In this document: positions 2,784 to 28,767 of the stretch, one piece after another
Numbering within the stretch: the first letter of the stretch is position 1
Layout of the letters: every line of letters begins with the position of its first letter
From: Caldilineae bacterium
GTDB lineage: Bacteria > Chloroflexota > Anaerolineae > JAAEKA01
Direction: 5' to 3'
Assembly (NCBI GenBank): GCA_020634555.1
Contig: JACKBK010000006.1
Location: 64,373-128,372, forward strand
DNA: 64,000 bases
Translations under genes and position numbers: made by a program
The notes under the pieces: generated by a model
Seen by the model: the letters and a program-made list of their open reading frames with translations, nothing else
Databases searched by the model: none
Told to the model about the DNA's origin: nothing

Positions 2784-2817
2784 AGAAGTTCGACTTTTTC
2801 GGCAAAGTCGAACTTCT
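2784..2817. repeat. Hairpin repeat family copy 1 (agaagttcgac-tttttcggcaaa-gtcgaacttct)
   Basis: 34-nt near-perfect palindrome that starts immediately after the udk TAA. Confidence 0.9.
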
Positions 2818-2842
2818 CAGATGGATGACGCCCTATGTTTTC

Positions 2843-2876
2843 AGAAGTTCAACTTTGCCGAAAAAGTTGAACTTCT
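2843..2876. repeat. Hairpin repeat family copy 2 (agaagttcaac-tttgccgaaaaa-gttgaacttct)
   Basis: Same family with the loop in opposite orientation. The stem carries a compensated G>A / C>T change relative to copy 1. Confidence 0.9.
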
Positions 2877-2908
2877 TGCGGCGCCGGCATGTTGAACTGC
2901 GCTGAGAC

Positions 2909-3709
2909 GTGACGGAGATTGCTTTGCTCAACAGCTACGATACCACCTTCATCGACCACTCTGCCGTGCTTGGCGACGGGTGTACGTTAGGCTTCGGTGC
3001 GGTGATCGAGGCGAATGCACAGATCGGACCGGGGTGCTCGATCGGCCACCACGCAGTGATCCATGCCGGCACACAGTTGGGCGCCGGCTGCCGCGTCGAG
3101 GCCCACGCGGTGCTGGGCAGGCAGCCGCGGCCAGCCGCCACCAGCACCGTGCGACCGCCGGCCCACCTGCCGCCGTTGGTCATCGGCGAAGGGACCAGCA
3201 TCGGTGCGGGTGCAGTAGCTTATGCCGGGACGACCATCGGCAGCCAGTGTCTGCTGGGCGACCACGCCTTTGTGCGCGAGAGCTGCACGATCGGCGACCT
3301 CGTGGTGGTTGGAACGCACGTGACCGTCGAAAACGAGGTCAGCATTGGCAGCCATAGCAAGCTGCAAACAGGCACCTACATCGCCGCCTGGACAACGATT
3401 GAGGAACACTGTTTTATCGCGCCGTGCGTCGTGACCAGCAACGACAACTTCATGGGCCGCACTGAGGCGCGCTTCGCCCAGCGCGGTGGTCCGACCATTC
3501 GCCGCGGCGCGCGTGTTGGCGCTAACGTCACACTTTTACCCAACGTCGAGGTCGGCGCAGAGGCTTTCGTCGCGGCCGGAGCGGTAGTCACGCGCGATGT
3601 TCCACCAGGCAAGCTGGTCATGGGCAGTCCGGCCCGTATCGTGCGCGATGTGCCACCGAGTGAGTTGCTGGAAGAGACAGAAATAACGGACTTGCTGAAT
3701 GCGCCATAA
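2909..3709 (+). CDS. Left-handed beta-helix (hexapeptide-repeat) sugar N-acyltransferase, WbpD-like
   Basis: Imperfect hexapeptide repeats run throughout (GDGCTLGFGAVIEANAQIGPGCSIGHHAVIHAGTQLGAGCRVEAHAVLG...). The C-terminal ...IRRGARVGANVTLLPNVEVGAEAFVAAGAVVTRDVPPGKLVMGSPARIV is typical of this family. GTG start. Confidence 0.75.
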   Translation: MTEIALLNSYDTTFIDHSAVLGDGCTLGFGAVIEANAQIGPGCSIGHHAVIHAGTQLGAGCRVEAHAVLGRQPRPAATSTVRPPAHLPPLVIGEGTSIGAGAVAYAGTTIGSQCLLGDHAFVRESCTIGDLVVVGTHVTVENEVSIGSHSKLQTGTYIAAWTTIEEHCFIAPCVVTSNDNFMGRTEARFAQRGGPTIRRGARVGANVTLLPNVEVGAEAFVAAGAVVTRDVPPGKLVMGSPARIVRDVPPSELLEETEITDLLNAP

Positions 3710-4148
3710 CGTGCAGGTTGATCAAAGCATCAAGATTGAACAGCCAGGCAACACGGTGTTAGCCTTCTCAAACGGAATCAGTTTCGCTGTCGTGGTCTCA
3801 CCGGATATTAAGCACGAGGCGATTCGGATATTGCGTGCTCGTGGAAAGAGCCGGGATGTCGCGCGTGTATTGGTGTTTGCTGCCGGTGTCTATCTCTTAC
3901 TTGCTGACTTTCTGGATAGCCTGGATCTGGTTGTTGTCGATACCGAATATGTCGGATATGACGCTTTGATCAAGGCGTTTCTGCTGCGCCACATTTGGCA
4001 GGAACACCCAATGTTTGATGGCCAGTGCATTATGTTTGCACAAGTAGGCAAAAAGTCACCGGCCCACGCGAAAGCCAATGCGGTGCGTCGACGTCAGGAC
4101 AAGGACTATCGTAAGTTGCAGTTACAAGAGGTAATAAGACTGTTGTGA
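3699..4148 (+). CDS. Hypothetical protein (149 aa), visibly lower GC than its neighbours
   Basis: ATG ORF overlapping the acyltransferase 3' end by 11 nt. I recognise no domain. It has one hydrophobic stretch (VLVFAAGVYLLLADFL) and a basic C-terminus (KKSPAHAKANAVRRRQDKDYRK). Its coding status rests only on ORF length and the lack of a competing ORF. Confidence 0.4.
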   Translation: MRHNVQVDQSIKIEQPGNTVLAFSNGISFAVVVSPDIKHEAIRILRARGKSRDVARVLVFAAGVYLLLADFLDSLDLVVVDTEYVGYDALIKAFLLRHIWQEHPMFDGQCIMFAQVGKKSPAHAKANAVRRRQDKDYRKLQLQEVIRLL

Positions 4149-4353
4149 GGAATCAGAAGATCGGGCGGGTCCCTTTCTGCCCAAATGGGCCGCCGGCCTT
4201 GTTGGCCAGGTGGGAACTGTTGTCAGGGTGTCACCCAAGAGTTAAGCCTCTCCTGCAGGGCGATGTTTCACGCCGGGGCGACCTGACCGCCCGATCTCTC
4301 TGCCCAAAGTATATCACAGTCTGTCAAGGTTTACCAAGAGGAGTTCACCGTTT

Positions 4354-5457
4354 ATGATCCCCATCCTGGATCTAAAAACTCAGTACGACTCGCTGCGCGT
4401 TGAGATCGCGGAGGCCATCAATCGGGTGTTGGAGAGCAGCCAGTTTGTGTTGGGGCCGGATGTGGCCGCGCTGGAGCGGGAGGTGGCTGCGTTCTGCGAC
4501 TGCGACTATGGTGTCGGTGTGGCGTCAGGCACCGATGCCCTGCGACTCTCGCTGGCTGCACTGAACATCGGCCCCGGCGACGAGGTGATCACCACGCCGT
4601 TCACCTTCGTCGCGACTGCCAATACCATCAGCCACAGCGGCGCGACGCCGGTCTTCGTTGACATCGAGCCCGACACGTTCAACATCGACCCGGCCGCGGT
4701 CGCCGCCGCCGTCACGCCGCGCACCAGGGCCATCGTGCCGGTGCATCTCTACGGCCAGCCGGCCGACATGGACGCGATCATGGATATCGCACGCCGTCAC
4801 GACCTGTACGTCATCGAGGACGCCGCCCAGGCCATTGGCGCAAGCTACAAAGGGCGGCGAGCGGGCAGTATCGGCACAGTGGGCTGCCTGAGCTTTTACC
4901 CGACCAAGAACCTGGGGGCGTACGGCGACGCCGGCATGGTCGTCACGGACGACGCGGCGCTGGCCGAACGGCTGGACCTGCTGCGGCGACAGGGCGGCAA
5001 GGATCGCTACTTTCACCAGGAACTGGGCTTCAACTCGCGGTTGGACAGCTTGCAGGCCGCGGTGCTGCGGGTCAAGCTGCGCTACCTGGACGGCTGGCAG
5101 GAGGCGCGCCAGGAGGTGGCAGCCCGCTACGACGCGATGTTGGCCGCGTCCGGCGTACCGGTGACGACGCCGGTCGTACGGCCAGATATGCGCCACGTCT
5201 ACCACCAGTACACGCTGCGCGCCCCGCGGCGGGACGAGCTGCTGGCGCACCTGAACAGCCGCGGCATCGGCGCCGTCGTTTACTACCCGCTGCCGCTGCA
5301 TCTGCAAGGGCTGTATGCCGATCTGGGATTGGGCGAAGGTTCGCTGCCTGTGGCCGAGCAGGCCGGACGCGAGGTGCTATCGCTGCCCATGTACCCTGAG
5401 CTGACCGAGACGCAGCAGGAGCAGGTGGTGGCGGCCATTGCTGAGTTCTACCGCTGA
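4354..5457 (+). CDS. DegT/DnrJ/EryC1/StrS-family PLP-dependent sugar aminotransferase
   Basis: The N-terminal MIPILDLKTQY...VLESSQFVLGPDV..LE.E.A, then ...GVASGTDALRLSL..., ...TPFTFVATANTI... and ...SFYPTKNLGAYGDAG are family hallmarks. SD aagaggag lies upstream. Confidence 0.9.
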   Translation: MIPILDLKTQYDSLRVEIAEAINRVLESSQFVLGPDVAALEREVAAFCDCDYGVGVASGTDALRLSLAALNIGPGDEVITTPFTFVATANTISHSGATPVFVDIEPDTFNIDPAAVAAAVTPRTRAIVPVHLYGQPADMDAIMDIARRHDLYVIEDAAQAIGASYKGRRAGSIGTVGCLSFYPTKNLGAYGDAGMVVTDDAALAERLDLLRRQGGKDRYFHQELGFNSRLDSLQAAVLRVKLRYLDGWQEARQEVAARYDAMLAASGVPVTTPVVRPDMRHVYHQYTLRAPRRDELLAHLNSRGIGAVVYYPLPLHLQGLYADLGLGEGSLPVAEQAGREVLSLPMYPELTETQQEQVVAAIAEFYR

Positions 5458-5509
5458 ATCTGCCGGATGAACGCTGCAACGGTATAATGCAGCCCGGACA
5501 GACCTTCCC

Positions 5510-6688
5510 ATGCAAACCCAGACGCGAGTGCAGACAAGCAGCGCAGTCAGAAGTTCGACTATTCCGAAAAAGTCGGACTTCTCAGAGTCGTCCTTCGCTG
5601 GCCTGACGGTTTGTGTGGTCGGTCCGCACTATCCGCGGCCGGGCGGCGTCTCCACGCAGGTAGAGATGCTGGAAAGCTGTCTGCGCGGCGAGGGCGCGAC
5701 GGTCCGCCCGGTGGACACCAACGTGCAATCGTTGCGACACCTGGGAAGGCCGGGGCGATGGCTGCTGCCCGCCGCGCAGGTGATGATTGTGCCGGTTCGA
5801 CTCTGGCGGGCAGCCGCTGGCGCGGATATAATCCACGCGCACCTGGCGTCGTATTGGGGCTTCTACCTGCCGATGCTGGCCGTGGCGCTGATCGGCAAGC
5901 TGCGCGGCGTGCCGTCCGTGGCGACCTACCACGGCGGCAAGGCTGCGGAATTTGTAACCGACCACAAAACCAGTGTCCGCGCGCTGCTAAACCGGCTGGA
6001 TGCCTTGATCGTCCTGTCGTCCTTTACCGGCCGGGTGTTTGAAGGTCTCGGCTTGAAGCCGGTCGTTGTCCCAAATGTGATCGACCTGCAACAGTTCCAA
6101 CCAGAACCGCCGGGACCGGGGTCCTCGCGGCTGTCCGAGCCAGATCGTCCGGCGTTGCTCTGGGTCAAGAGCTTCGACGACTCCGGCAACCCTGCACTGA
6201 TGGTCGAAGCGTTTGCGAGACTGCGCCGCGACCTTCCCAGAGCAACGCTGACCATGATCGGTGACGGCCCGCGCCTGCCAGACGCACGGGCACAGGCGGA
6301 GGCGCTCGCTACGCCGGTCTATTTTGCCGGCCGTGTCCCTTACGACGCGATGGCGCAGGCGTACGAGAAAGCCGACATCCTTGTGATTTCCAGCGCCGTA
6401 GACAACCAGCCCAACGTGCTGATCGAGGCCTCGGCCAGCGGGCTGCCGGTGGTTGCAACCGCGGTTGGCGGCATTCCCGACATGGTCGAGGACGGCGTGA
6501 ACGCTCTGCTGGTCGCACCAGACGACGCGGACGCGCTGGCAGCAGCCGTGTTGCAGGTCGCGCGCGACCCTAATCTGGCCGGTCGTCTTGGCCACGCCGC
6601 CGTTGAAAACGCCCAGAGGTACACGTGGATGCAGGTGCGCGGCCAACTGGCAGCAGTGTACCGACAGGTGATTCGAGGCGATCAATGA
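5510..6688 (+). CDS. Glycosyltransferase family 4 (GT-B); N-terminal boundary uncertain
   Basis: ...VCVVGPHYPRPGGVSTQVE... and the C-terminal ...ISSAVDNQPNVLIEASASGLPVVATAVGGIPDMVEDGVNALLV (an E-x7-E type motif). The only canonical in-frame start is ATG 5510. This places hairpin repeat copy 3 (5549-5582) inside codons 14-25. Confidence 0.8.
   Translation: MQTQTRVQTSSAVRSSTIPKKSDFSESSFAGLTVCVVGPHYPRPGGVSTQVEMLESCLRGEGATVRPVDTNVQSLRHLGRPGRWLLPAAQVMIVPVRLWRAAAGADIIHAHLASYWGFYLPMLAVALIGKLRGVPSVATYHGGKAAEFVTDHKTSVRALLNRLDALIVLSSFTGRVFEGLGLKPVVVPNVIDLQQFQPEPPGPGSSRLSEPDRPALLWVKSFDDSGNPALMVEAFARLRRDLPRATLTMIGDGPRLPDARAQAEALATPVYFAGRVPYDAMAQAYEKADILVISSAVDNQPNVLIEASASGLPVVATAVGGIPDMVEDGVNALLVAPDDADALAAAVLQVARDPNLAGRLGHAAVENAQRYTWMQVRGQLAAVYRQVIRGDQ
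5549..5582. repeat. Hairpin repeat family copy 3 (agaagttcgact-attccgaaaaa-gtcggacttct)
   Basis: Degenerate member of the same palindrome family, lying within the predicted 5' end of the GT4 ORF. Confidence 0.85.
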
Positions 6689-7632
6689 CCGAGCGCCCCC
6701 GCACGGCGTTGATCACCGGAGCAGCCGGCTTTTGCGGCAGCTATCTGGGCGAGTTGCTGTTGGGACAGGGCGTCCGCGTTGTTGGCGTCGACCGGGTGGC
6801 GTCAAGCGGCGCGCCGTATCGATTCGAGTCACTGGACCTGCGCGACGAGGCGGCTGTGCGTCGAATCGTTGCCGAGACACGGCCGGACTGGCTCGTACAC
6901 CTGGCTGCGCTCACCGACCCGGCCGCGCCCGCCGGCGACCTGTATCAAGTAAACGTATTGGCAACGATCCGTCTGCTGGAGGTTGTCCAGACCGCTGTCC
7001 CTGACTGCACGGTGCTTATCGCCGGCTCCAGCGCTCAGTACGGGCTGACCAGGCCGGATGAGAACCCGATCACTGAGGCGCAGCTTTTTCGACCGGTTAC
7101 GCAGTATGCTGTCAGCAAGGCGACGCAGGATATGGTCGGCGGCATGGCCAGCGCGGCCGGCCTGCCGGTCATCCGCACCCGCACCTTCAACATCGTAGGG
7201 CCGCGGCAAAGTCCGGCCTTTGTCACGGCGGCTTTTGCCCGCCAGATCGCCGAAATCGAGCACGGACTGCGCGAGCCGGTCATCGAGGTCGGCAACCTGG
7301 CAGCGCAGCGCGACTTCGTGGACGTGCGCGATGTGGCGCGGGCCTATTGGTTGGCGCTGGAACGGGGCCGGGCGGGCGCAATTTACAACGTCTGTTCCGG
7401 CCAGGGACGCCGCATTCAGGAGTTGCTGGACGGGCTGCTGGCCTTGTCCACCGTCCGCGACATCGAGGTACGCCGCGATCCGCAACGTTTGCAGCCGGCC
7501 GATGTGCCCGCACAGGTTGGCAGCTACGACCGCTTGCGCGCCGACACCGGCTGGCAACCGCAGATCCCCTGGGAACAGTCATTGCGCGATCTGCTGGACT
7601 ACTGGCGGGCGTCCATGAACACTGAACAGTGA
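6685..7632 (+). CDS. NAD(P)-dependent epimerase/dehydratase (extended SDR; GDP-6-deoxy-hexose reductase-like)
   Basis: The track ORF begins at 6625. I prefer ATG 6685, which makes an ATGA overlap with the upstream stop. This gives MTERPRTALITGAAGFCGSYL (GxxGxxG), then ...YAVSKATQD (YxxxK). Confidence 0.85.
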   Translation: MTERPRTALITGAAGFCGSYLGELLLGQGVRVVGVDRVASSGAPYRFESLDLRDEAAVRRIVAETRPDWLVHLAALTDPAAPAGDLYQVNVLATIRLLEVVQTAVPDCTVLIAGSSAQYGLTRPDENPITEAQLFRPVTQYAVSKATQDMVGGMASAAGLPVIRTRTFNIVGPRQSPAFVTAAFARQIAEIEHGLREPVIEVGNLAAQRDFVDVRDVARAYWLALERGRAGAIYNVCSGQGRRIQELLDGLLALSTVRDIEVRRDPQRLQPADVPAQVGSYDRLRADTGWQPQIPWEQSLRDLLDYWRASMNTEQ

Positions 7633-10945: not shown

Positions 10946-11815
10946 TTGTCGCAGTTGCCCGCCAAATTCAGAGACATCATGATAATCACCGATCGCTTTG
11001 TAGCCATCAACCTTCCAAAGACCGGCAGCAGCTTTGTCCGCCGTGTGCTGAAGCAGCTACACAGCTACGAGGCGGTGCATAACCGGTTGTTGCGATGGGC
11101 TGGCCTCGCCGATCGCTCGGGCATGGTTGAACTGATCCTTCCGGTCATCGACCGCCAGTATCCGCCCAACCGAACCGGGCAACACGGGACTGTGCGCCAA
11201 ATCCCCGGATCGCATCGGGATGGGCCGATTATGAGCGTGGTGCGCAACCCGCTGGAACGCTATGTCTCTACCTACCGGTTTGGATGGTGGAAGAAAAACC
11301 CACACGCACCTGTCGAGGAACTGCTTCAGGTGTATCCATCCTATCCTGATCTTGCCTTCGGCGAGTATATAGAGATGATGAACACGTTCGGCAAGCGAAA
11401 CCGGTTGGGCGATATGCAACCACGCACTGATGTTGGATTTCAGACGATCCAGTTCTTGCAGTTTTTCTGTGAAGACCCAAAGCGTTTGCTCTCCAATTTG
11501 AACGATGACGCGGTTGAGCAACAACACTATCGGGAGGCGCTGGCCGAAGTGACCTTCCTGCACCAGGAGAGGTTGAACGAAGAACTGCACGACTTTCTCG
11601 TCAAGAGTGGTTATCCGGAGGAAGACGTAGCGTTTGTCCTGCAAGCCAGGCCGGTAAACGTTACCCCTGGCAAAGCAGGCAAGGTGGACCTTGCAGCACA
11701 CTATTCCGGAGCTTTGGCAAGACAGGTGATTCAGCAAGAGCGGGTGCTTTTCGATCTCTTCCCTGAATACCGCGCCCCGGCCCAGAACCTGCTGGAGTTG
11801 CGCGGTGGAATCTGA
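10946..11815 (+). CDS. Sulfotransferase-like protein (family-2 type); alternative start ATG 10979
   Basis: A 5'-PSB-like INLPKTGSSFVRRVL and a 3'-PB-like VVRNPLERYVSTY. The gene looks clearly AT-richer than its flanking genes. Confidence 0.6.
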   Translation: MSQLPAKFRDIMIITDRFVAINLPKTGSSFVRRVLKQLHSYEAVHNRLLRWAGLADRSGMVELILPVIDRQYPPNRTGQHGTVRQIPGSHRDGPIMSVVRNPLERYVSTYRFGWWKKNPHAPVEELLQVYPSYPDLAFGEYIEMMNTFGKRNRLGDMQPRTDVGFQTIQFLQFFCEDPKRLLSNLNDDAVEQQHYREALAEVTFLHQERLNEELHDFLVKSGYPEEDVAFVLQARPVNVTPGKAGKVDLAAHYSGALARQVIQQERVLFDLFPEYRAPAQNLLELRGGI

Positions 11816-12743
11816 ACTGCTGGGCTACCAGCACCGCGCCTACGCCGAGGCGCTTAGCGGCCTCGGCACACCGCTCTTCCTGCCGCGCAGCCGGGGCTGG
11901 CTGCTGCAACGCACCATTCCCGGCACTGGTATGCGCGACGCTATGGGCGTCTACCCGCTGTTCTCGTGTGCCAACTGGGACGCGCTGGGCGATGATCTGG
12001 ATGCGCTGGCTGGCCGGCTGGTCAGCACAGTGCTGGTGGCCGATCCCTTCGGCGAATACAGCAACGACCAGTTGCAGCGGTGGTTCCCCGACGTGATGCG
12101 ACCGTTCAAGGAGCATTTCGTCGTCGATCTGAGTCGCGACCCGGCTACCTTCGTCGCAAAAAACCATCGCCGTAACGCGCGCAAGGCGCTGCAAGTCGTG
12201 ACAGTGTCGCGCTGTCTGCCTGTTGAGCAGTGGGCTGGCCAGTGGACTGCGCTCTACCGGTTGCTGGTACAGAAACACAAGATACGCGGCCCCGCAGCTT
12301 TTTCAGACCGGTCGTTGACGGCGCAACTGCGCGTGCCCGGGCTGGTCGCCTGGCGGGCCGAGGCAAGCGGCGAGACGGTGGGCATGGTTCTCTGGTACGT
12401 GCAGGGCGATGTCGGCTATTATCACCTGGCGGCCTACAGCGATGCCGGCTACCGGCTGCGGGCTTCCTTTGCCCTCTTCTGGCGCTCGCTGGCGTATTTC
12501 GCGGCCGGCGGTCTGCGTTGGCTGAACCTGGGCGCGGGCGCGGGTCTGGAAGCGGCCGAGGATGGACTGACCCGCTTCAAGCGCGGTTGGTCCACAGGCA
12601 CGCGTACGGCGATGTTGTGTGGTCGGGTTTTTGACCGCACCAAGTATGATGCGCTGACCAACGTCCGCCAGATCGGAGCAACCTCCTATTTCCCGGCCTA
12701 CCGGCTGAACGAATTTACCCAAACGGAGCCAGAAACCGCTTGA
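11805..12743 (+). CDS. FemAB/GNAT-like acyl- or aminoacyl-transferase (BioF2-like acetyltransferase domain)
   Basis: ...GYYHLAAYSDAGYRLRASFALFWRSLAYFAAGGLRWLNLGAGAG...GLTRFKRGWSTG resembles the FemAB-type GNAT C-terminal module (the ..FK.G.. motif). GTG start overlaps the upstream gene. Confidence 0.5.
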   Translation: MESELLGYQHRAYAEALSGLGTPLFLPRSRGWLLQRTIPGTGMRDAMGVYPLFSCANWDALGDDLDALAGRLVSTVLVADPFGEYSNDQLQRWFPDVMRPFKEHFVVDLSRDPATFVAKNHRRNARKALQVVTVSRCLPVEQWAGQWTALYRLLVQKHKIRGPAAFSDRSLTAQLRVPGLVAWRAEASGETVGMVLWYVQGDVGYYHLAAYSDAGYRLRASFALFWRSLAYFAAGGLRWLNLGAGAGLEAAEDGLTRFKRGWSTGTRTAMLCGRVFDRTKYDALTNVRQIGATSYFPAYRLNEFTQTEPETA

Positions 12744-12796
12744 GAAGTCCTCCCAGACTGAAGTCTCCTGGCCACTTTTCAAACAGTTTGTCAGCA

Positions 12797-13807
12797 ATGC
12801 AACCAGTACGACAACCACAACACCAACGCAACCCACAGTTAGAAACGCTGCTGCAAGAGATCAGCGGGCTGCTTGGCCCCGCAGAACAGCAGGTAGCAGC
12901 GCAGTACAGAATGCCAACCCACCCGGTGGTACTCGTCATGGGACTGCCTCGCTGCGGTTCGACCCTGACCATGCAGTGGCTGGCGGCCTCCGGACGTTTC
13001 GCCTATCCCAGTAACCTGCTGTCGCGCTTCTACGCCGCGCCCTATGTGGGCGTCAGAATCCAGCAACTGCTGACTGACCCGGCATTCAGTTTTGGCAACG
13101 AGCTGCACGACCTGGCAGCCAGCATTGATTTTGCGTCAACCCTGGGAAAGACCCGCGGCGCGCTGGCGCCCAACGAGTTCTGGTACTTCTGGCGCCGCTT
13201 CATCCCAAACATCGAGCCGCGCCGGTTGACAGACGAGGAACTGGCAGAGGTTCGCTCGTCTGAGTTCGCCGCAGAACTGGCCGCGCTGGAAGCGGCCTTT
13301 GGCAAACCGCTGGCCATGAAAGGGCTGATCCTCGCGCTGAACATTTCCTTTCTCGACCAACTGCTGGACAAGGTGCTCTTCTTGCACCTGCGGCGCCATC
13401 CCTTCTATAATATTCAGTCGTTGCTGGAGTCCCGGGAGCGCTACTACGGCGACCGGGCCGGCTGGTATTCGATCAAGCCGCCAGAGTATGACTGGCTGGT
13501 GGGCGAGGACCCCATCACCCAGGTAGTAGGTCAGGTGGTCTTCACCCACCAGGCCATGGCCGCTGACCTGGCGCAGATCGACGCCGCGCGGCAGCTTGCC
13601 GTCAGCTACGAAGCATTCTGCGCCGATCCTGCCGGCGTGTGGGATCAACTCACCGGTCGCCTGCGAGCGCAGGGTTTGGACGCTGATTGGCCGTATGACG
13701 GGCCGGATCGGTTTCCAGACACCAACCAGGTGCGCCTGCCGGCCGGCGATGTACAGGCGATCCTCGACGCGTACCGGCGCTTCACCGGCGAGCAACTTGC
13801 ACTATGA
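12797..13807 (+). CDS. Sulfotransferase-like protein
   Basis: The track ORF starts at 12740 (TTG). I prefer ATG 12797. It has a 5'-PSB P-loop VVLVMGLPRCGSTLTMQWL and a 3'-PB-like VLFLHLRRHPFYNIQSL. Confidence 0.65.
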   Translation: MQPVRQPQHQRNPQLETLLQEISGLLGPAEQQVAAQYRMPTHPVVLVMGLPRCGSTLTMQWLAASGRFAYPSNLLSRFYAAPYVGVRIQQLLTDPAFSFGNELHDLAASIDFASTLGKTRGALAPNEFWYFWRRFIPNIEPRRLTDEELAEVRSSEFAAELAALEAAFGKPLAMKGLILALNISFLDQLLDKVLFLHLRRHPFYNIQSLLESRERYYGDRAGWYSIKPPEYDWLVGEDPITQVVGQVVFTHQAMAADLAQIDAARQLAVSYEAFCADPAGVWDQLTGRLRAQGLDADWPYDGPDRFPDTNQVRLPAGDVQAILDAYRRFTGEQLAL

Positions 13808-15935: not shown

Positions 15936-17087
15936 ATGCGACTGTGCGTTATCTCCAATCCCAACAGCATCCACACCCACCGCTGGGTGGATTACTTTGT
16001 TGGCCGCGGCCACGAAGTTACCCTGATCGGTGACCTGCCGCTGCGCCGCGCCGCGCCGGTGGGTGTTGACTACGTTGACCTGCCTGGCAGGCAACGCGGC
16101 GGCAAGATGCGTTACGCCGGCTGGGCGCGTTCTGTGCGCCGCATCGTGCGCGAGCTGCGTCCTGATGTGCTGCACGCCCACTACATTGCCAGCACCGGTT
16201 GGTTGGGCGCAGCGGCCGGTTACCATCCGTTTCTGGTGACCGCCTGGGGGTCCGACCTGTTGGTTAACGCGCAGCGCTCTGTCGTGCAGCGCCAGTTGGC
16301 GCGCTGGGTGCTACGCAGCGCCGACTACGTTACCTGCGTCTCAGAAAACCTGGCGACGGTAGCCCAGCAACTGGGCGCCGATCCGGGACGACTGGAGGTG
16401 GCGCCGTGGGGCGTCGATACCGAGGTGTTCCGTGCCGCTGACGACCGCGATGTGCTGCGCGGCAAACTGGGAATAGAGCAAGCTTTGACAGTGATGAGCA
16501 TCCGCTCGATCAAGCCGGTCTACAACCCACTGGTTATCGCCGACGCGTTTGGGTTGGTGGCGCAGCAGGAGCCAGCCGCCCGCTTCATCGTCCGCACCCA
16601 CAACTCCAATCCTGATTTGCTGGCAGCGTTTCGACGGCGAATCGACAGCGCCGGGGCGGCCAGATCGGTAAGCTACACTGGCGATCTGGCCGATGACCGT
16701 GCGATCGCCGAAGGCTATGCAGCATCTGACATCGCTGTCTCCGTGCCCTCATCGGATGGGACGCCTTCCTCTGTACTGGAGGCTATGGCCTGCGGCGCGG
16801 TGCCCGTGTTAAGCGACTTGCCTTCCCTGCACGAGTGGGTCAGCGACGGGCAGGATGGACTGTTCGTTCCCGTCGGTGACGCCGGTGCGCTGGCCGCTGC
16901 GATTCTGCGGCTGGTGTGGGACAAGGAGCTGCGTAGCCGGCTGCAAGCAAACAGCGCAGCCACGATTCGCTCCCGTGGCGATCGCACCCACCTGATGCGG
17001 CGGGCCGAGGAGATCTACGAGACACTGGCAGCCGGCAAGAATCCGTGGCCTGCCGGTCCAGAAGTTCAACTTTTCGGAAAAAGTTGA
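15936..17087 (+). CDS. Glycosyltransferase family 4
   Basis: [21 protein letters not shown]... and the C-terminal ...[44 protein letters not shown]. The last 9 codons (EVQLFGKS) and the stop lie inside hairpin repeat copy 4. Confidence 0.8.
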
Positions 17088-17093
17088 ACTTCT
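17060..17093. repeat. Hairpin repeat family copy 4 (agaagttcaac-ttttcggaaaaa-gttgaacttct)
   Basis: A palindrome that overlaps the 3' end and TGA (17085-17087) of the GT4 gene. Confidence 0.9.
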
Positions 17094-18975: not shown

Positions 18976-19980
18976 CTAAGTCCCATACCCCAACCGCGCC
19001 ATGGTCGGTTCGATGAGCGGCTGGATGCGTTCGATCTCGACTCCGTGTTTGCGGCGCCACTTCTGGGCATCAGGCGCGGAGACGATATTGATCTCTGGCA
19101 GTTTGTCAGCGTACCGGCCAAAGTTAGCTGTGAAGTCAACAGCCAGGAACGTTGCAACGTCCTGCAGTGCGCTGCGAGGGTCGGCGATCAGATCCTCGTA
19201 GCGCAGCGTCAGGTAGGGCACGCGACCGGCGGTCTGTTCCCGATGCTCCAGTACAGCCTCGTTGCATCGAATCCACTGCCAGGCGCAGATTTCCTCCAGT
19301 GGGCTTTTGGTCAGGTCCCGCCAGCCAGGAATCAGTGAGAAGGCCCAGCGCGGCCGGCTGTAACCGGGGATGGACAGCGTCGCCGGCACGTCGTAGCCGG
19401 GGAAGGTGTGCGGCTCCAGCCAGCCTTCCATCAGTGAGCTGACGTTGCTGCGCCCATCGCGGGTCAGATAGATGATGCGGGCGTCCGGAAAAAGAGCCAG
19501 GAAGAAAGGCAGGCGCAAGCAGTTCTCCGGTGTCTTCTCGACCAGGCAGATGTCTCCACTGGGCGGCGCGACCCGGTTGCGCAGCGCCACAGCCCGGCGA
19601 ATCGTGTCCAGTCCTGCCTGTGGCAGCGCGCTGCTGACGCTCGATCCGGCCGCGGTGCTCCGGCCGCGGCGGCGGATGCTGCGATAGAACGAGTTGTCCC
19701 GCAGGCCGCTGCGGAACCGATTCACCCGGCGCCAAAACGTGCCCGGCGCGGCCTGCCGTTGGAACTCGTGCAGCATGAAGGCACGGGACTCTGCTGTCAA
19801 GTCGTCAGCGTCCAGCGCGCCCGAGTCCCAGCCTTTGACGGCTGGCGCGTGGTAGCGTTCGATGATGGCCTTGCTCTCGTAGCCGATGGACCAGAGAGCG
19901 GGCGCCTCGGAGAGGATGTTGAACAGGAGTGTAGTGCCCGAGCGCGGGCAGCCGATGACGATGACGGGTGAACGGATCAT
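18976..19980 (-). CDS. Sulfotransferase (P-loop type)
   Basis: A 5'-PSB motif VIVIGCPRSGTTLLFNIL and a 3'-PB motif IIYLTRDGRSNVSSLMEGW. It is the only minus-strand gene within the glycan locus. Confidence 0.75.
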   Translation of the reverse strand: MIRSPVIVIGCPRSGTTLLFNILSEAPALWSIGYESKAIIERYHAPAVKGWDSGALDADDLTAESRAFMLHEFQRQAAPGTFWRRVNRFRSGLRDNSFYRSIRRRGRSTAAGSSVSSALPQAGLDTIRRAVALRNRVAPPSGDICLVEKTPENCLRLPFFLALFPDARIIYLTRDGRSNVSSLMEGWLEPHTFPGYDVPATLSIPGYSRPRWAFSLIPGWRDLTKSPLEEICAWQWIRCNEAVLEHREQTAGRVPYLTLRYEDLIADPRSALQDVATFLAVDFTANFGRYADKLPEINIVSAPDAQKWRRKHGVEIERIQPLIEPTMARLGYGT

Positions 19981-20022
19981 GTGTGGATACTACCAGACGC
20001 TGCGCGCAAGCGTCAAGAACGG

Positions 20023-20338
20023 CGGCGCGACGTTCAACTTTTTCGGCAAAGTTGAACGTCTGGATGTGCGATACCCTAAAAGATCGACTTTGCGGAAAAA
20101 GTCGAACTTTCCACGGACCTGCCATGAAACTTCTTTGTTTGACACCGCGCTTGCCCTTCCCGCCTGACCGGAGGGACCAGCGGCGCGACGTTCAACTTTT
20201 TCGGCAAAGTTGAACGTCTGGATGTGCGATACCCTAAAAGTTCGACTTTGCGGAAAAAGTCGATCTTTCCACGGACCTGCCATGAAACTTCTTTGTTTGA
20301 CACCGCGCTTGCCCTTCCCGCCTGACCGGGGCGACCGG
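20023..20338 (+). repeat. 158-bp tandem duplication (2 units) carrying two hairpin-family repeats plus the start codon and first 16 codons of the downstream GT4 gene
   Basis: 20023-20171 and 20181-20329 differ at only 2 of 149 positions. ATGAAACTTCTTTGTTTGACACCGCGC... occurs at both 20124 and 20282. Hairpins lie at 20029-20060, 20078-20110, 20187-20218 and 20236-20268. Confidence 0.9.
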
Positions 20339-22674: not shown

Positions 22675-25600
22675 ATGACAACAAAACTAACTCGCTTCTG
22701 CGAGGCAATCATCGAAGCCGGATGGCTGGCGGCGCTGATCTACGTGCCGCTTTTCTTCAACGTTCATTCCAGCCGGGTGTTCGAGCCGGATAAGATCAGC
22801 GTGTTGCGGTCCATCGCTCTGGTGATGGCTGTTGCCTGGCTGATCAAGGTGCTCAACGACGGTCTTGGCCGCGGTGGCGACGACGAAGGCGAGCGAGTCT
22901 CTCTGTGGCAGAGAATCGTCAGGACGCCGCTGGTGCTGCCGACGCTATTGCTGGTGCTGGCTTACCTGATCAGCACGGTCTTCTCTATCAACCCGCGCAT
23001 CAGCTTCTTTGGCTCCTACCAGCGACTGCAGGGCACGTATTCGACGCTGTCGTACATCGTGATCTTCTTTCTGGTGCTGGGACACCTGCGCCGGCCGGCG
23101 CAATGGCGGCGCATGGCCTATGTCATCATCCTGGTCAGCGTGCCGATTGCGATCTACGGCTTGTTGCAGCGCGCCGACCTGGATCCGCTGCCATGGGGCG
23201 GCGACGTACAGCGACGTATCGCCGGCAACATGGGGAATGCGATCTTTGTGGCCGCGTACCTGATCATGGCTTTTTACCTGACGCTGGAGCGGCTGTTGGA
23301 GCATCTGGGCAGGCTCGTAGGTGGGGATGACAACCGGCAATCGATCATGGATGCTGTCTTGGCCGGCTTCTACCTGTTCATCATTGCAGTACAGAGCCTG
23401 GCGATTCTCTTTACCCAAAGCCGCGGCCCGCTGCTGGGCTGGCTGGCCGGGATTTTTGTGTTTATCCTACTCTTCCTGCTCGGACTGCGCGGACGAGCCG
23501 GTGAAGAGGAAAACAAGGGCGGATTTGTACGGCTTTTGGAGCGCTGGCTCTGGCTGCCATGGATCGGTTTCGCGTTGGCCGGCCTTGTGTTCCTGGTGGT
23601 GTTCAACATTCCGGGATCGCCGCTGGCTCCCCTGCGGACCAACCCCATCATTGGCCGCCTGGGCACCGCGTTGGATCTGGAGAGCCAGACCGCGCGCGTG
23701 CGCACGCTGATCTGGGAAGGCGCTTCGGAACTAATTGGCCCACACGACCCGCTGCAATATCCGGTCACGGGTGGCGAAGGGGACGTCACAGCGATGACAC
23801 CGGACCGGCTAAACGCGATCCGCCCGCTGATCGGCTACGGCCCCGAGTCGATGTGGATGGCGTTCAACCCCTTCTACCCGCCCGATCTGGCACACTACGA
23901 GTCGCGCAACGCGTCTCCTGACCGCTCACACAACGAGACCTTCGACTCGCTGGTGATCACCGGCATCCTTGGATTCATCGCCTATATGGCGCTCTTCCTT
24001 AGCATCTTCTTCTTTAGCCTGTCGTGGTTGGGCCTGATGCGCAGCCGCGGGCAGAAGATCCTCTTCTCTGTTCTGGCGATAGGCGGCGCGTTGTTAGGGT
24101 CGCTGCTGGCCTATGCCGCGATGGGCAACTGGGTGCTGTTCGGCATCGCTCTGCCAGCCGGGATGAGTCTGGGAATTCTGGCCTACATCTTGGTAGCAGC
24201 CATCTGGAACGAGGTCGGCCAGCATCCCATGCGTCTCGGCCAACGCGAGCTGATCGTCATGACCGTCCTGTCGACGATCATCGCCCACTTCATCGAGATC
24301 CACTTCGGCATCGCCATCGCGTCGACGCGCACCTACTTCTGGATCTGGAGCGCGGTGCTGGTGGTAGTGGGGATGGGCTGGCTCAAGTTGGGCGAACCCG
24401 CCGAGCAGCCAGCGCCACAGCCGGAACCTGTGGCTGCAACGGGCCGCCGCAAAAAGGGTCGGGGGCGCCGTCGTGTGCCGGCACCGTCCGGCACGACATC
24501 CACACCTGGCCAGTGGGACGAGGTGATCATCTACGCCGTGACGCTGGGCATTATGCTCTTCATCATTGCGTTCAACTACATCATCAACCCCAACGTCCTG
24601 GACCTGCGCAGCACCAACCCGATTGTCGTCTTCATTCAGTCGTTCACCACTCGGGTAGACACCAAGCTGGGCGAGCGGTTTGTCAGCCTCGGCCTGTTCT
24701 GGATGGTGACGTTCGTGGTGCTGGTGGGCACGGTAGTCGCGCTGCTGGATATCGCCCGCAGCCGGGCTACCGCAGTGACAGGGCGATGGCTGGGCAAGGC
24801 TGCGCTGATCTCGCTGGCGATCTCGCTGGGCATGTTCCTTGGTCTTGGCTTGCTGCACGCGGCGACAATTGCCCGCGACGCGGCCCGCCAGCAGCCCGGC
24901 CGCTCGATCACATTGGAGCAACTGGCCAGCATGTCGGCCAGCCATGTCACCGAGCTGTACATCATCAGCTTGCTGCTCATATTTCTGCTGGCGTTCACAG
25001 TCTGGCGCACACAGCGCGGAACGAATAGCTGGCTGGGCGCAGGCGGCTGGCTGGCGCCCGCGGGCGGTGCAGTGCTGGCAGTGGTCGGCCTGCTGATCAT
25101 CTTCAACCTCAACGCCAGCCTGGTACGAGCCGACATTGTCTATAAACAAGGGCAGGCCTACGACAACGCAGGACGTTATACCGAAGCGATCCAGCTCTAC
25201 CAGATGGCGCTCGACGAGGAGCCAAAAGAAGACTACTACTGGTTGTTCCTTGGGCGCGCTCAACTGGAGCAGGCGCGTGCCGCCTCAGGTGCCCAGCAAG
25301 CTAGTTTCCTGGCCAACGCGGAAGAGTCGCTGCTGCGCGCGCAGGAGTTGAACCCGCTGAACACCGACCACTCGGCTAATCTGGGCCGGCTTTACCTGGC
25401 CAAATCGCAGATGACCACCGGGGAGGGGCGAGCCGAAGCCGTTCAGAAGGCACTGGACTACTACTCCGTCGCCACACGGCTGAGCCCCAACGCAGCCCAT
25501 CTGCACAACGAGTACGGCACTGCGTATCAGGTGGCCGGTCAAATCGACAAGGCGTTGGAGCAGTTCGACATCTCGTTGGCGCTGGACCAGGAATACCCGG

Positions 25601-25962
25601 ACACCTATCGACGGCTGGGTGATTTCTACCAGCGCACTAACCAGAACGACAAGGCTATCGAAGCCTACGAGGCTGGTGTGAAGATCGCGCCGCGCGATGT
25701 GACTTTCCACAGCAATCTTGGTTTCTTGTACGCCGAAGCCGGCGACAGAGAAAAGGCGATCCAGGAAAATCTGACGGTGGTGGACAGGCGTCCCAACGAC
25801 CTGGCGTCGCTCCGCAACCTGGCCATCCTCTACAGCGAGGTCGATGACTTCGACAACGCGCTGGTGTTCGCTCAACGAGCGCTGGAACTGGTCACAAAGG
25901 ACGAGGACCGGGCAGCCTTGCAGACATTGATCGACCAGCTTCAGGCGCAGCGCGGCGGCTAG
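22675..25962 (+). CDS. O-antigen polymerase/ligase-like (Wzy_C-type) polytopic membrane protein fused to C-terminal TPR repeats
   Basis: 1095 aa with more than 12 TM helices. ...LFTQSRGPLLGWLAGIFVF... resembles the O-antigen ligase domain core. A basic loop (RRKKGRGRRR) is present. The C-terminal ~280 aa carry repeated TPR-like units (...YDNAGRYTEAIQLYQMALDEEP..., ...AYQVAGQIDKALEQFDISLALD..., ...DKAIEAYEAGVKIAP...). Confidence 0.7.
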   Translation: MTTKLTRFCEAIIEAGWLAALIYVPLFFNVHSSRVFEPDKISVLRSIALVMAVAWLIKVLNDGLGRGGDDEGERVSLWQRIVRTPLVLPTLLLVLAYLISTVFSINPRISFFGSYQRLQGTYSTLSYIVIFFLVLGHLRRPAQWRRMAYVIILVSVPIAIYGLLQRADLDPLPWGGDVQRRIAGNMGNAIFVAAYLIMAFYLTLERLLEHLGRLVGGDDNRQSIMDAVLAGFYLFIIAVQSLAILFTQSRGPLLGWLAGIFVFILLFLLGLRGRAGEEENKGGFVRLLERWLWLPWIGFALAGLVFLVVFNIPGSPLAPLRTNPIIGRLGTALDLESQTARVRTLIWEGASELIGPHDPLQYPVTGGEGDVTAMTPDRLNAIRPLIGYGPESMWMAFNPFYPPDLAHYESRNASPDRSHNETFDSLVITGILGFIAYMALFLSIFFFSLSWLGLMRSRGQKILFSVLAIGGALLGSLLAYAAMGNWVLFGIALPAGMSLGILAYILVAAIWNEVGQHPMRLGQRELIVMTVLSTIIAHFIEIHFGIAIASTRTYFWIWSAVLVVVGMGWLKLGEPAEQPAPQPEPVAATGRRKKGRGRRRVPAPSGTTSTPGQWDEVIIYAVTLGIMLFIIAFNYIINPNVLDLRSTNPIVVFIQSFTTRVDTKLGERFVSLGLFWMVTFVVLVGTVVALLDIARSRATAVTGRWLGKAALISLAISLGMFLGLGLLHAATIARDAARQQPGRSITLEQLASMSASHVTELYIISLLLIFLLAFTVWRTQRGTNSWLGAGGWLAPAGGAVLAVVGLLIIFNLNASLVRADIVYKQGQAYDNAGRYTEAIQLYQMALDEEPKEDYYWLFLGRAQLEQARAASGAQQASFLANAEESLLRAQELNPLNTDHSANLGRLYLAKSQMTTGEGRAEAVQKALDYYSVATRLSPNAAHLHNEYGTAYQVAGQIDKALEQFDISLALDQEYPDTYRRLGDFYQRTNQNDKAIEAYEAGVKIAPRDVTFHSNLGFLYAEAGDREKAIQENLTVVDRRPNDLASLRNLAILYSEVDDFDNALVFAQRALELVTKDEDRAALQTLIDQLQAQRGG

Positions 25963-25983
25963 GCGGAACCAGAGCAACGCTTC

Positions 25984-26997
25984 ATGCTTCACGCAGCAGG
26001 TATCTACATTCTGGTTGCCATCACAGCGTTGGTTGCTGTGGTGCTGGCGACGCCGGTGGTTCGACGCGTTGCCTGGCGCTTTGGGTTCATCGACCAGCCC
26101 AGCTTCCGCAAGGTACACAGCACGCCAATGCCGCGGCTGGGTGGGCTGGCGATCTACGCCGGGTTTATTGTGGCGCTGCTGGTGTTGGGCGCACGGTTTC
26201 GCTTCAACGAGGCGGTCGGCATCCTGGTCGGCGCGACGCTGGTGTCGGTAGTCGGCGGGATCGACGACCGCAACCCCGTTGCCCCATTGCCCAAGCTGTT
26301 GGCACAAGCAGTGGCGGCCGGTATACTGATCATCAGCGGCGTTCAGGTGGAGGTGTTCGACCAGCAGTGGCTGAATGTGGTTGTCACTGTGATCTGGGTT
26401 GTCGGCATCACCAACGCGCTCAACTTCCTGGACAACATGGATGGCCTGTCGGCCGGCGTGGCCGCGGTGGCGGCCGCGTTTTTCCTGCTGTTGGCCGCGC
26501 TCAACGACCAGTATCTGGTGGGCGCGCTGTCGGCGGCGCTGTTGGGGGCATGCATCGGCTTCCTGGTGTACAATTTCAACCCGGCCAGCATCTTCATGGG
26601 TGACAGCGGCTCGCTGTTCATTGGTTTTGTGCTGGCGGCGCTGGGCATCAAGCTGCGCTTCCCGGCTAACACGGATATCGTGACCTGGATGGGGCCGGTG
26701 CTGGTGCTGGGGCTGCCGATTCTCGACACGACGTTGGTAACTATCTCGCGGCTGCGGCGGGGCAAAAACCCGCTGACCACGGCCGGCAAGGATCATATTT
26801 CCCACCGACTCGCACGCCTGACCGGCTCGAAGCGCGAGGCCGTCTTGTTGTGTTATCTGATTGGCTGCGGCTTTGGCATGACGGCAATCTTTGTCACCAC
26901 GGCGTCGATCGTCGAAGGCTATCTTGTCGGGGTTGTCATGGCTGTGAGCGGCCTGGCAATGATCTGGTGGTTGGAAGCACGGGTAGGATACGAGTAG
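25984..26997 (+). CDS. Polyprenyl-phosphate N-acetylhexosamine-1-phosphate transferase (MraY/WecA family, initiating transferase)
   Basis: ...[17 protein letters not shown]..., ...GGIDDRNPV..., ...[17 protein letters not shown]... and ...[18 protein letters not shown] are the conserved glycosyltransferase family 4 (MraY-like) motifs. Confidence 0.9.
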
Positions 26998-27214
26998 GCG
27001 TGTCGCCGTCACTCCCGCGAAGGCGGGAGTCCAGAACGTTGTCGAGGCGAGTGATCGATTGCGCGTGTGGACGCATGGATGCCCGCCTTCGCGGGCATGA
27101 CGAAGTAGGCGTGTCGCCGTCACTCCCGCGAAGGCGGGAGTCCAGAACGTTGTCCAGACGAGTGATCGATTGCGCGTGTGGACGTATGGATGCCCGCCTT
27201 CGCGGGCATGACGA
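26994..27214. repeat. Two tandem 111-bp units of a MITE-like element built from CCCGC-GAAG-GCGGG hairpins
   Basis: Units start at 26994 and 27105. Each has gtcactcccgcgaaggcgggagtccag at the left end and tggatgcccgccttcgcgggcatgac at the right end, so the ends are imperfect inverted repeats of each other. The repeat starts inside the stop codon of the upstream gene. Confidence 0.85.
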
Positions 27215-27245
27215 GAAGACGAAGTGTGACGACTGACGAGGTTCA

Positions 27246-28589
27246 ATGTCACTAAGTACAAAAATCAGCGACAAGACCGCCACCATCGGCATCGTCGGGT
27301 TGGGGTATGTCGGGCTGCCGCACGCGGTGGCATTTGCAACAGCCGGCTTTCCGGTGATCGGCATCGACGTCAACGGCGAGCGGGTCGCGGCTATCAACCG
27401 CGGCGTGAGCCAGATTCCCGACGTGCCATCGGAACAACTGGCGCCGCTGGTGGCTACCCACCGGCTGTCCGCATCCACCGATCCAGGCCATCTGGTCGAG
27501 GCCGATGTAACGCTGATCTGTGTGCCGACGCCGTTCGACGACATGAAGACGCCCGATCTGCGCTATATTGTGGCCGCCGCGCGGGGCATCGCCGCCAACC
27601 TGCGGCCCGACACCATGGTGATCCTGCAGAGCACCACCTATCCCGGCACAACTGAGGAGGTGGTGCAACCGATTCTGGAGAACAGCGGCCTAAAAGCCGG
27701 CCGCGACTTTCATCTGGTGTTCTCGCCGGAACGCATCGATCCGGGCAACCGCCAGTACAGTGCCCACAACATCCCCAAGGTCGTAGGCGGACTGACTCCG
27801 CAGTGTACTGAGTTAGCCTGCGTGCTGTTCGGCCACCTGACGCCGGACGTACACCCGGTCTCAACGCCGCGGGCGGCGGAGATGACCAAGCTGCTGGAGA
27901 ACATCTTCCGCAGCGTCAACATCGCGATGGTCAACGAGTTGGCGGTGCTGATGGAGCGGATGCAGATCGATATCTGGGAAGTCATTGATGCGGCGCGCAC
28001 CAAGCCTTTCGGCTTCATGGCGTTCACACCAGGTCCGGGCGTCGGTGGCCACTGTATCCCGGTCGATCCGTATTACCTGTCGTGGAAGGCGCGCGAGTTC
28101 GACTTCTACACCAAGTTCATCGAGCTGGCGGCTGAGGTCAACGCTGACATGCCCGACCATGTGGTGCGCAAGGTGATCGCCGGCCTGAATCTGGACGGCA
28201 AGCCGGTGCGCGGCTCCACGGTGCTGATCCTGGGCGTCGCCTTCAAGCGCGACATCGACGACGCCCGCAACTCGCCGGCGCAGCGTGTCATCGAGCTGTT
28301 ATTGGACGCAGGCGCGCATATCGAGTATCATGACCCATTTGTAGCGACCTTTCGCACCGGCGGCAACGCGCTTCATCGCAGACCAACGACTTTGCGCAGC
28401 ATCTCACTTGATGAGGGGCTGAACGCGGCCGATGCAGTGGTCATCCTGACCGGCCATACGACGGTTGATTATGCCCAGGTAGTAAGCCGGGTACGAGTGG
28501 TGGTGGATGCGGTCAACGTGACCGGAGAGGTGGCCGAAGCCGCCGGCCGTGTGATCCGCCTGGGCGCACCGATGCCGGTTAGTCTGTGA
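27246..28589 (+). CDS. UDP-N-acetyl-hexosamine 6-dehydrogenase (nucleotide-sugar dehydrogenase family; WbpA/WecC/Cap5O-like)
   Basis: ...IGIVGLGYVGLPHAVAFA..., ...GGHCIPVDPYYL... (catalytic Cys) and ...GVAFKRDIDDARNSPA... Confidence 0.9.
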   Translation: MSLSTKISDKTATIGIVGLGYVGLPHAVAFATAGFPVIGIDVNGERVAAINRGVSQIPDVPSEQLAPLVATHRLSASTDPGHLVEADVTLICVPTPFDDMKTPDLRYIVAAARGIAANLRPDTMVILQSTTYPGTTEEVVQPILENSGLKAGRDFHLVFSPERIDPGNRQYSAHNIPKVVGGLTPQCTELACVLFGHLTPDVHPVSTPRAAEMTKLLENIFRSVNIAMVNELAVLMERMQIDIWEVIDAARTKPFGFMAFTPGPGVGGHCIPVDPYYLSWKAREFDFYTKFIELAAEVNADMPDHVVRKVIAGLNLDGKPVRGSTVLILGVAFKRDIDDARNSPAQRVIELLLDAGAHIEYHDPFVATFRTGGNALHRRPTTLRSISLDEGLNAADAVVILTGHTTVDYAQVVSRVRVVVDAVNVTGEVAEAAGRVIRLGAPMPVSL

Positions 28590-28767
28590 CGTTCGACTTG
28601 TTCGGCAAAGTCGAATATCTGAAAACTGTCGCGTTGAGACGTTCGACTTTTTCGGCAAAGTCGAACGTCTGGAGACTGTCGTGTTGAGACATTCGACTTT
28701 TTCTGAAAAGTCGAACGTCCGAGAATAGTGTGAAAGAAACTCGGTTTTGCCGAAAAAGTCGGGTTTC
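28588..28767. repeat. Tandem array of four hairpin-family repeats (period 50, 50, 48 bp)
   Basis: Hairpins lie at 28588-28619, 28638-28669, 28688-28719 and 28736-28767. The inter-hairpin linkers are homologous (tgaaaactgtcgcgttga / tggagactgtcgtgttga). The first hairpin overlaps the TGA of the dehydrogenase. Confidence 0.9.

Follow-up and report, generated by a model that had tools for sequence, protein, structure and literature searches.

A dispersed family of hairpin repeats, probably of the REP kind, at a polysaccharide locus of an uncultured Anaerolineales bacterium

We analysed a family of hairpin repeats in a stretch of 64,000 nucleotides from Caldilineae bacterium, hereafter called the window, which corresponds to positions 64373-128372 of contig C56 in a 3.79-Mb draft genome (G000; 92 contigs, 61.8% GC, 75% complete). 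The hairpins are surrounded by a polysaccharide cluster of 24 genes at about 2.9-28.6 kb. The cluster encodes hexapeptide acyltransferases, two DegT aminotransferases, several GT1/GT4-family and GT2 glycosyltransferases, nucleoside diphosphate-sugar epimerases/dehydratases, a nucleotidyltransferase, a Wzx-type flippase, a Wzy-like/TPR protein, four sulfotransferase-like proteins, a WecA-like transferase and UDP-glucose dehydrogenase. The four sulfotransferase-like proteins point to a sulfated polysaccharide, which is unusual for bacteria, as the predicted product of the locus. Sulfotransferase-like genes are located at 10946-13807 and 18976-19980, and one of them gave a weak Pfam match just under the curated cut-off.

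A repeat search of the window found one 33-nt family with 12 copies (Table 1). The first-pass annotation, made from the letters of the window, had counted the same twelve copies; they are real and lie where it placed them, with at least five of its start positions off by 1 nt. The unit is 33-34 nt, and a single copy consists of a 14-bp stem and a 6-nt loop, a short palindrome of the size expected for repetitive extragenic palindromes (REPs). The family consensus is AGAAGTTCGACTTT-TTCGGC-AAAGTCGAACTTCT. The loop occurs in both orientations, as had been noted, namely as TTTTTCGGCAAA and as the reverse complement TTTGCCGAAAAA, and the copies were classified by the loop as type A (TTCGGC) or type B (GCCGAA). 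The predicted folding energies of the single copies were -18 to -29 kcal/mol as RNA, far below those of shuffled controls (z -5 to -8.5), and -13 to -15 kcal/mol as DNA. The doublet at 2780-2881 was predicted to form a single hairpin of about 33 bp at -52.3 kcal/mol, as compared with -37.1 kcal/mol for two separate hairpins. The strict sequence pattern of the first-pass annotation matched the window 6 times, while 0.02 matches were expected by chance. A covariance model of the family, R1, recovered exactly the 12 copies and none in 29-64 kb at E<=0.1, in agreement with the earlier statement that the other ~35 kb contain no copy. All 12 copies were likewise found at a gene boundary, though those at 17060 and 5549 overlap coding sequence. 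In an Rfam search of the window no family fitted the hairpins, and the sole match was a tRNA (535-607).

Table 1. Hairpin copies of the family in the window, with the number of copies at the corresponding sites of two congeners
Feature	Coordinates	Loop type	Position and remarks	Copies in G000	Copies in G001	Copies in G002
Copy 1	2784..2816	A (TTCGGC)	Starts right after the stop of a uridine-kinase-family gene (2151-2783); first half of an A→B doublet			
Copy 2	2843..2875	B (GCCGAA)	33 nt upstream of a hexapeptide-transferase open reading frame (2909); stem variant GTTCAAC/GTTGAAC			
Copy 3 (5.5-kb site)	5549..5581	B	Within the N-terminal coding tail of a GT1 glycosyltransferase (ATG 5510); translated as ..RSSTIPKKSDFS..	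1	2	1
Copy 4 (17-kb site)	17060..17092		Contains the final ~9 codons and the TGA (17085-17087) that ends a glycosyltransferase gene (15936-17087); folds at -28.7 kcal/mol	1	no match	1
Four copies at 20028, 20078, 20186 and 20236 (20-kb site)	20028..20268	A, B, A, B	Gap between divergent sulfotransferase (-) and GT1 (+) genes	4	no match	1 (single type-A copy)
Four copies at 28587, 28637, 28687 and 28735 (period 50/50/48)	28587..28767	A, A, A, B	Between UDP-glucose dehydrogenase and cyclophilin-domain genes, downstream of the former; first copy overlaps the TGA stop	4	3	2

The first-pass annotation regarded the hairpins as a private family found only at the glycan locus, and this does not hold, because 66 of the ~78 copies lie elsewhere in the genome. 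The genome-wide pattern search that it proposed gave matches of the strict pattern on ~25 contigs. With an iterated nhmmer profile and a threshold of E<0.2, 78 copies were detected. They form 47 clusters, of which 28 are singlets, 11 are pairs, 5 are triplets, 2 are quadruplets and 1 is a quintuplet, and they are dispersed over ~28 of the 92 contigs as in REP families. Among all hairpins of the genome with a stem of 11 bp or more, 11 families had at least four members, and this one was the largest. The family is almost entirely extragenic, in that 44 of the 47 clusters are located at gene boundaries though coding sequence makes up ~86% of the genome according to a rough gene call from codon usage. 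The census therefore comes close to an ordinary genome-wide REP, the outcome that the first-pass annotation had itself named as contrary to its proposal.

The distribution of the family in relatives was examined with R1. Each of the three congeners (G001, G002 and G003) gave at least 81-136 matches, both strands counted. In a second genus, at least 14-106 matches were obtained in 7 of 10 genomes and 4 in an eighth, while four other genera of the same family and 13 other families of the class gave none or at most 4. An exact-pattern search among named genomes gave matches in only two metagenome-assembled genomes, 'Anaerolineales bacterium HK-STAS-CHLO-17' and 'uncultured Chloroflexia bacterium MFD09779.bin.2.73'. 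The hairpin family is limited to two genera of one Anaerolineales family.

The structure of the element was analysed with an alignment of 55 copies from the whole genome, in which the consensus is nnAGAAGTTCGACTTTTTCGGCAAAGTCGAACTTCTnn and the hairpins are of the AGAAGTTCGAC type. Columns 1-2 are unconserved, and G4, A5, G7, C10 and A12-T15 are, with their partners, invariant or nearly so. The elements are AT-rich (about 40-50% GC) as compared with the genome. The compensation of stem variants that had been seen by eye in the window is borne out by this alignment: 95% of the cells of the 14-pair stem are paired and 9 of the 14 pairs covary. Cells changed on both sides of the stem numbered 47, against 6.9 in column shuffles, and the signal was destroyed when the partner was slid by one column. 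The stem variants GTTCGAC, GCTCGAC, GTCCGGC and GTTCAAC occur in the family. Within the stem, wobble pairs (~4) are far fewer than mismatches (~18), so that there is no sign of the G·U tolerance expected under a purely RNA-level constraint.

The order of the copies is also not free. Among neighbouring copies of the genome, the A→B order was found 12 times and B→A once, only inside a recent duplication, while 15 pairs were AA or BB. Since the A→B order is identical when read from either strand, it represents a fixed inverted arrangement. This A→B doublet, folding into one long hairpin, has the geometry of a REPIN (REP doublet forming a hairpin). The arrays combine two stem subtypes, GACG...CGTC and GAAG...CTTC. 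In a post hoc count, all 8 of the 8 mixed arrays had the GACG...CGTC member in front when read along the plus strand of the contig, regardless of gene direction (p about 0.008; for example at C56:84416, C56:92969, C30:17116, C40:10482, C3:30578, C35:22096, C1:79825 and C14:42699), which is surprising because contig orientation should be arbitrary.

Regarding the position relative to genes, 44 clusters could be classified, of which 28 lie between co-directional genes, 11 in convergent and 5 in divergent gaps. Convergent gaps are about two-fold over-represented (11 versus 5.1-5.5 expected, p about 0.02). A gene 3' end adjoins 39 of the 44 clusters, and 24 of these 39 start within 10 nt of the stop codon. 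A special affinity for stop codons was considered and is not supported, as uniform placement in short gaps gives nearly as many cases (21 versus 17.9, p = 0.11). In the glycan locus, the copies at 2784 and 28587 lie directly after or at a stop codon, those at 2843, 20236 and 28735 just upstream of a start codon, the array at 20028-20268 in a divergent promoter gap, and those at 5549 and 17060 in coding tails. These heterogeneous positions favour tolerated insertions over a single dedicated regulatory role.

The coding overlaps are conserved. At the 17060 site, the ortholog in G002 ends at the same TGA in the 3' arm of the hairpin. At the 5549 site, ATG 5510 and the reading frame are kept in G000, G001 and G002 with only in-frame insertions or deletions, and no canonical start codon was found in G000 between the hairpin and the conserved beta-1 strand. 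A TATAAT box (5484-5489), also kept in the three species, lies about 20 nt upstream of this ATG. The minus strand at 19987-20016 carries a sigma-70-like promoter (TTGACG-18-TAGTAT with TG), in a block kept in G002. Its end is separated by 7 nt from the ATG of the sulfotransferase gene, and this spacing suggests that the sulfotransferase mRNA may be leaderless.

The locus was compared site by site with those of G001 and G002. Four of the five hairpin sites are shared with G002 and two with G001 (Table 1), as expected from vertical inheritance. A further shared site connects contig C8 of G003 with C30:8338 of G000. When the hairpin sites of the relatives were mapped onto G000, most of their flanks were missing from the 75%-complete assembly. 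The pairing is mostly kept at the shared sites while the linkers become unalignable, which is the covariation across orthologous loci that the first-pass annotation had proposed to look for; the compensated differences include CAAC/GTTG versus CAGC/GCTG and GAAAC...GTTTC versus GAAGT...GACTTC. The sites are inherited vertically, the copy number per site varies, and presence or absence differs between species. At the 5.5-kb site, G001 has an extra segment of 58 nt, and this one filled/empty comparison shows no clear target-site duplication. The arrays grow by local tandem duplication. The first copy at 28587 is an extra one of G000, missing in both congeners, and the ABAB order at 20 kb arose from a 158-nt tandem duplication (20017-20174 / 20175-20332) in which the first ~17 codons of the glycosyltransferase gene were copied too.

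The enrichment at the glycan locus, which had been proposed for the window, was confirmed in the assembly: the locus is its densest region, with 5 clusters and 12 copies in 26 kb. When 47 clusters were placed at random in intergenic gaps or in the genome, 5 clusters were reached in 0.8-2.2% and 12 copies in 0.3-0.5% of the trials, and the genome-wide corrected p value was about 0.01-0.02. The enrichment is real but modest. It is largely inherited, since four of the five sites are shared with a congener, and part of the excess is recent local duplication, as seen in the copy at 28587 and in the 158-nt duplication that turned AB into ABAB. A general association with polysaccharide genes was rejected, as of the 42 clusters elsewhere in the genome 5 have a paralog of a locus gene within 5 kb, versus 3.5 expected (p = 0.27); two other hairpin sites adjoin Wzx/Wzz-like and sugar-transferase genes. 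The locus is not a compositional island, its GC content of 62.5% being equal to that of the rest of the window and close to that of the genome. Nor does it carry a private subfamily, because its stem variants (GTTCGAC and GTTCAAC) are the same as elsewhere, and a locus-specific binding factor, another idea of the first-pass annotation, is left unsupported.

Other repeats are present in the window. A 111-nt unit of a GGATTCCCGC...GCGGGAATGA-type hairpin family is tandemly duplicated with 97% identity at 26993-27214, between the WecA-like and UDP-glucose dehydrogenase genes, and two 67-nt copies of this family lie at 53139-53205 and 57092-57158. Two 74-nt copies (95% identical) of another palindrome, CCCCTTGTGGGCGTTCGGGA...CCGGAACGGGCACAAGGCCC, were found at 39738-39811 and 39860-39933 with a spacing of 122 nt. 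The region 44886-45418 contains leucine-rich-repeat-like coding repeats with a 41-nt period.

Genes for Y1 enzymes of the HUH type, which include the REP-associated tyrosine transposases (RAYTs), are present in these genomes with hairpin families of their own. The two in G000 are single-copy genes at C10:20450-21230 and C2:83600-84560; one scores as IS200-type (80 bits in NCBIfam), and the other has the HUH motif DHIHLL. Both are preceded or flanked by tandem hairpin units, which in each case belong to a family of that gene's own, distinct from the studied one; the family linked to the C2 gene, GAGTTCGCAT...ATGCGAACTC, has ~15 copies in G000. In G001, a RAYT-like gene of 189 amino acids (contig C22, 1420-2140) has the HUH motif NHYHLLV and matches REP_Tyr_transpos of NCBIfam with 72 bits, the cut-off being 80. 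It is bracketed by a related but distinct hairpin, AGAAACYSRGTTTCT, with one copy upstream and two downstream. In G002, a RAYT-like gene is bracketed by its own palindrome, AGGTGACAGTCACTTTC, and that family has 16 copies in G000. The lineage clearly runs several RAYT/REP pairs. The copies of the studied family nearest to any Y1 gene form a doublet 2.7 kb away in G003. The AGAAACYSRGTTTCT sister family was considered too and was rejected; it is not present in G000. A small gene between two doublets on C14 was considered as the mobilising enzyme and proved to encode an ordinary CBS-domain protein. Two further observations concern related sequences. The fourth copy of the last array in the window, at 28735 (AGAAACTCGG...), resembles a hybrid of the studied family and the AGAAACYSRGTTTCT sister family. 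A small family with 7-8 copies in G000, AGAG(A/T)TGCCAACTTT-loop-AAAGTTGGCA(A/T)CTCT (for example at C1:38120, C1:39842, C14:3977, C23:125267, C34:17245, C49:10243 and C89:43892), has the outer AGA...TCT and the inner ACTTT...AAAGT in common with the studied family and differs in the middle stem.

From these results, the hairpins are probably a lineage-specific family of repetitive extragenic palindromes of the REP/REPIN/BIME (bacterial interspersed mosaic element) kind. The first-pass annotation had listed a REP-like or MITE-like (miniature inverted-repeat transposable element) nature among its options, and this was the right one as regards genome-wide dispersed, extragenic palindromes; as for MITE features, the unit is 34 nt and wholly palindromic, and no parent insertion sequence was found. 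Its spread would have been due to a process at the DNA level that acts on the hairpin when the DNA is single-stranded, which is in keeping with the lack of wobble pairs. The most likely agent would be an HUH/Y1 (RAYT-type) enzyme acting in trans, because several RAYT-like genes are found in these genomes and each of them has a hairpin family to itself. After the spread, vertical inheritance and local expansion by duplication would have followed. The concentration at the glycan locus may then be mostly historical, that is, the result of old insertions at tolerated junctions of a long cluster of 24 genes and of local duplications, and not of a locus-specific function. E. coli REPs protect mRNA 3' ends and cause partial termination. 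By analogy, hairpins transcribed within the glycan operon probably influence the decay of its mRNA or read-through as a side effect, which would not be defining for the family.

The near-perfect palindromy is probably kept by the requirement for a hairpin together with homogenisation of the arms and inversion of the loop via replication template switching. Template switching is reported to homogenise the arms of inverted repeats and to invert their spacers (PMC8794818, PMC8604942). Selection on RNA is thus not required to account for the compensated stems or for the two loop orientations.

Several results weigh against a REP family moved by such an enzyme. The search for a RAYT/IS200-type transposase proposed in the first-pass annotation found no Y1 gene flanked by the studied family in eight genomes: with R1, none of the 2 Y1 (PF01797) genes of G000 and the 28 Y1 genes of seven carrier relatives had a copy in its flanks, although the assemblies are incomplete (two of the seven relatives are 98% complete) and absence is therefore not proven. 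The GTAG terminal tag, the cleavage site of RAYTs, is not conserved (6 of 132 element ends), nor is the CGTC tag (17 of 132 ends); where present, CGTC is on both ends of the copy, and the subtype GACGTTCGAC...GTCGAACGTC ends in it. Head-to-tail neighbours (the 15 AA or BB pairs) are as common as inverted ones, whereas they are rare in classical REP families (PMC3733652). Most described REPs have shorter and less perfect stems than the 14-15 bp seen here, and mobility is something that we only infer, from the distribution of the copies and the presence/absence differences. The local enrichment and the long retention of hairpins at shared sites would also suit a selected role. A reading that takes up this last point is quite improbable in our estimation. 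It holds that a RAYT-independent Anaerolineales palindrome family, kept palindromic by template switching, was retained at the junctions of the sulfated-polysaccharide cluster beyond the divergence of the three congeners through co-option, either as operon punctuation (read-through or decay barriers) or as short glycosyltransferase coding tails, so that the local enrichment would be functional rather than historical.

Selection could also act on the RNA. The hairpins would then be punctuation, namely terminators without a U-tract (I-shaped) or bidirectional terminators, attenuators, or 3'-exonuclease barriers, which set differential expression in long operons such as the glycan cluster. The gene 3' ends beside most clusters, the many starts close to stop codons, the excess of convergent gaps and the very stable predicted RNA hairpins agree with this, as do the positions and hairpin sequences kept across three species while the linkers diverged, and the density at the glycan locus. 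However, the proximity to stop codons is no more than short gaps give, and the mixture of 3' ends, a divergent promoter gap, 5' leaders and N- and C-terminal coding tails fits poorly with punctuation. No T-run follows the stem, while classical terminators with a GC-rich stem and a T-run are present elsewhere in the genome. Single copies show no bias of loop orientation relative to transcription (~5 A versus 6 B in a manual tally), wobble pairs are not favoured over mismatches, and punctuation does not readily account for arrays of up to 5 copies. We consider RNA-level punctuation unlikely.

It is very unlikely that the palindromes serve a dimeric protein (nucleoid-associated, gyrase- or IHF-like, or a regulator) as binding sites in duplex DNA. 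Free covariation of the stem suits a structural need better than base-specific reading, a half-site would seldom be as long as 14 bp, operators would not be expected in tandem arrays or within coding sequence, and no genome-wide link to a functional gene class was found, as the count near glycan genes indicates. These points stand against the near-perfect dyad symmetry with variation by Watson-Crick pairs only, the several invariant or nearly invariant positions and the AT-richness of the elements in a 62% GC genome, all of which speak for such sites. An origin by mutation alone, in which template switching makes and perfects inverted repeats that are then duplicated, with no transposition and no function, would account for the compensated stems and both loop orientations, and the arrays clearly grow by local duplication. 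This origin is highly improbable, as it cannot explain ~47 dispersed sites on ~28 contigs with one 34-nt consensus, the same consensus in two genera, or the 12:1 preference for the A→B order.

If the hairpins are a REP family, what seemed to be a private repeat of the glycan locus belongs to an ordinary REP-type family found throughout the genome, and no special regulator is needed there. The analysis provides a well-defined REP/REPIN-like family and its covariance model for uncultured Anaerolineales, in which such elements have hardly been described. It adds one more abundant palindrome family without an adjacent RAYT or GTAG tag, which bears on how 'orphan' REPs spread and persist. For annotating starts and stops and for tracing the history of the locus, helpful markers are provided by the two copies in conserved coding tails and by the sites that several species share.

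The family can be compared with several known systems. It is not a CRISPR array, as the linkers are 15-25 nt, the units are 70-86% identical to the reference copy, both loop orientations occur and arrays have at most 5 units; no cas domains were found among the genes neighbouring the hairpins. With intrinsic and I-shaped terminators it shares stable hairpins by stop codons, enrichment between convergent genes and a symmetry that would allow function in both directions. It differs from intrinsic terminators in its AT-rich stem, followed by variable sequence and not by a T-run, in its single shared 34-nt consensus in place of gene-specific sequences and in its presence in promoter gaps and coding tails. 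A consensus scan for intrinsic terminators flagged 2 copies, in both cases only for part of the inner stem and on the minus strand, whereas canonical hairpins with an A-run, GC stem and T-run were found elsewhere in the genome.

Di Nocera et al. 2013 (PMC3733652) documented CGTC REPs without a dedicated transposase and untagged stem-loop families. The studied family resembles these in apparently having no dedicated transposase, in lying mostly downstream of coding regions and in having some copies in genes. The CGTC REPs have 8-9-bp stems, 4-5-nt loops and a CCA-like unpaired tail, so that the studied family, with its 14-bp stem and 6-nt loop, falls outside their definition, and they were not reported from Chloroflexi in that work. 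From the REP/REPIN systems with RAYTs in Escherichia coli, Pseudomonas fluorescens and Stenotrophomonas, our family differs in lacking a conserved GTAG tag and a family-flanked RAYT in the eight genomes, in its longer near-perfect stems (14-15 bp) and common head-to-tail neighbours, and in its host, an uncultured member of the Anaerolineales and not a proteobacterium. It shares with them palindromic stem-loops of ~33 nt in tens to hundreds of copies, an extragenic location often just 3' of genes, a lineage-restricted distribution with vertical inheritance, inverted doublets predicted to form long hairpins, the occurrence as singlets and clusters, and compensated stem variants. As compared with the BIMEs of E. 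coli, its units are near-perfect palindromes whose orientation is set only by the 6-nt loop, and no IHF or other conserved motif was identified in its linkers, no search aimed at one having been made. It shares with them clusters that join two stem subtypes (GACG-type and GAAG-type) through short linkers in a preferred order, and arrays of up to 5 units.

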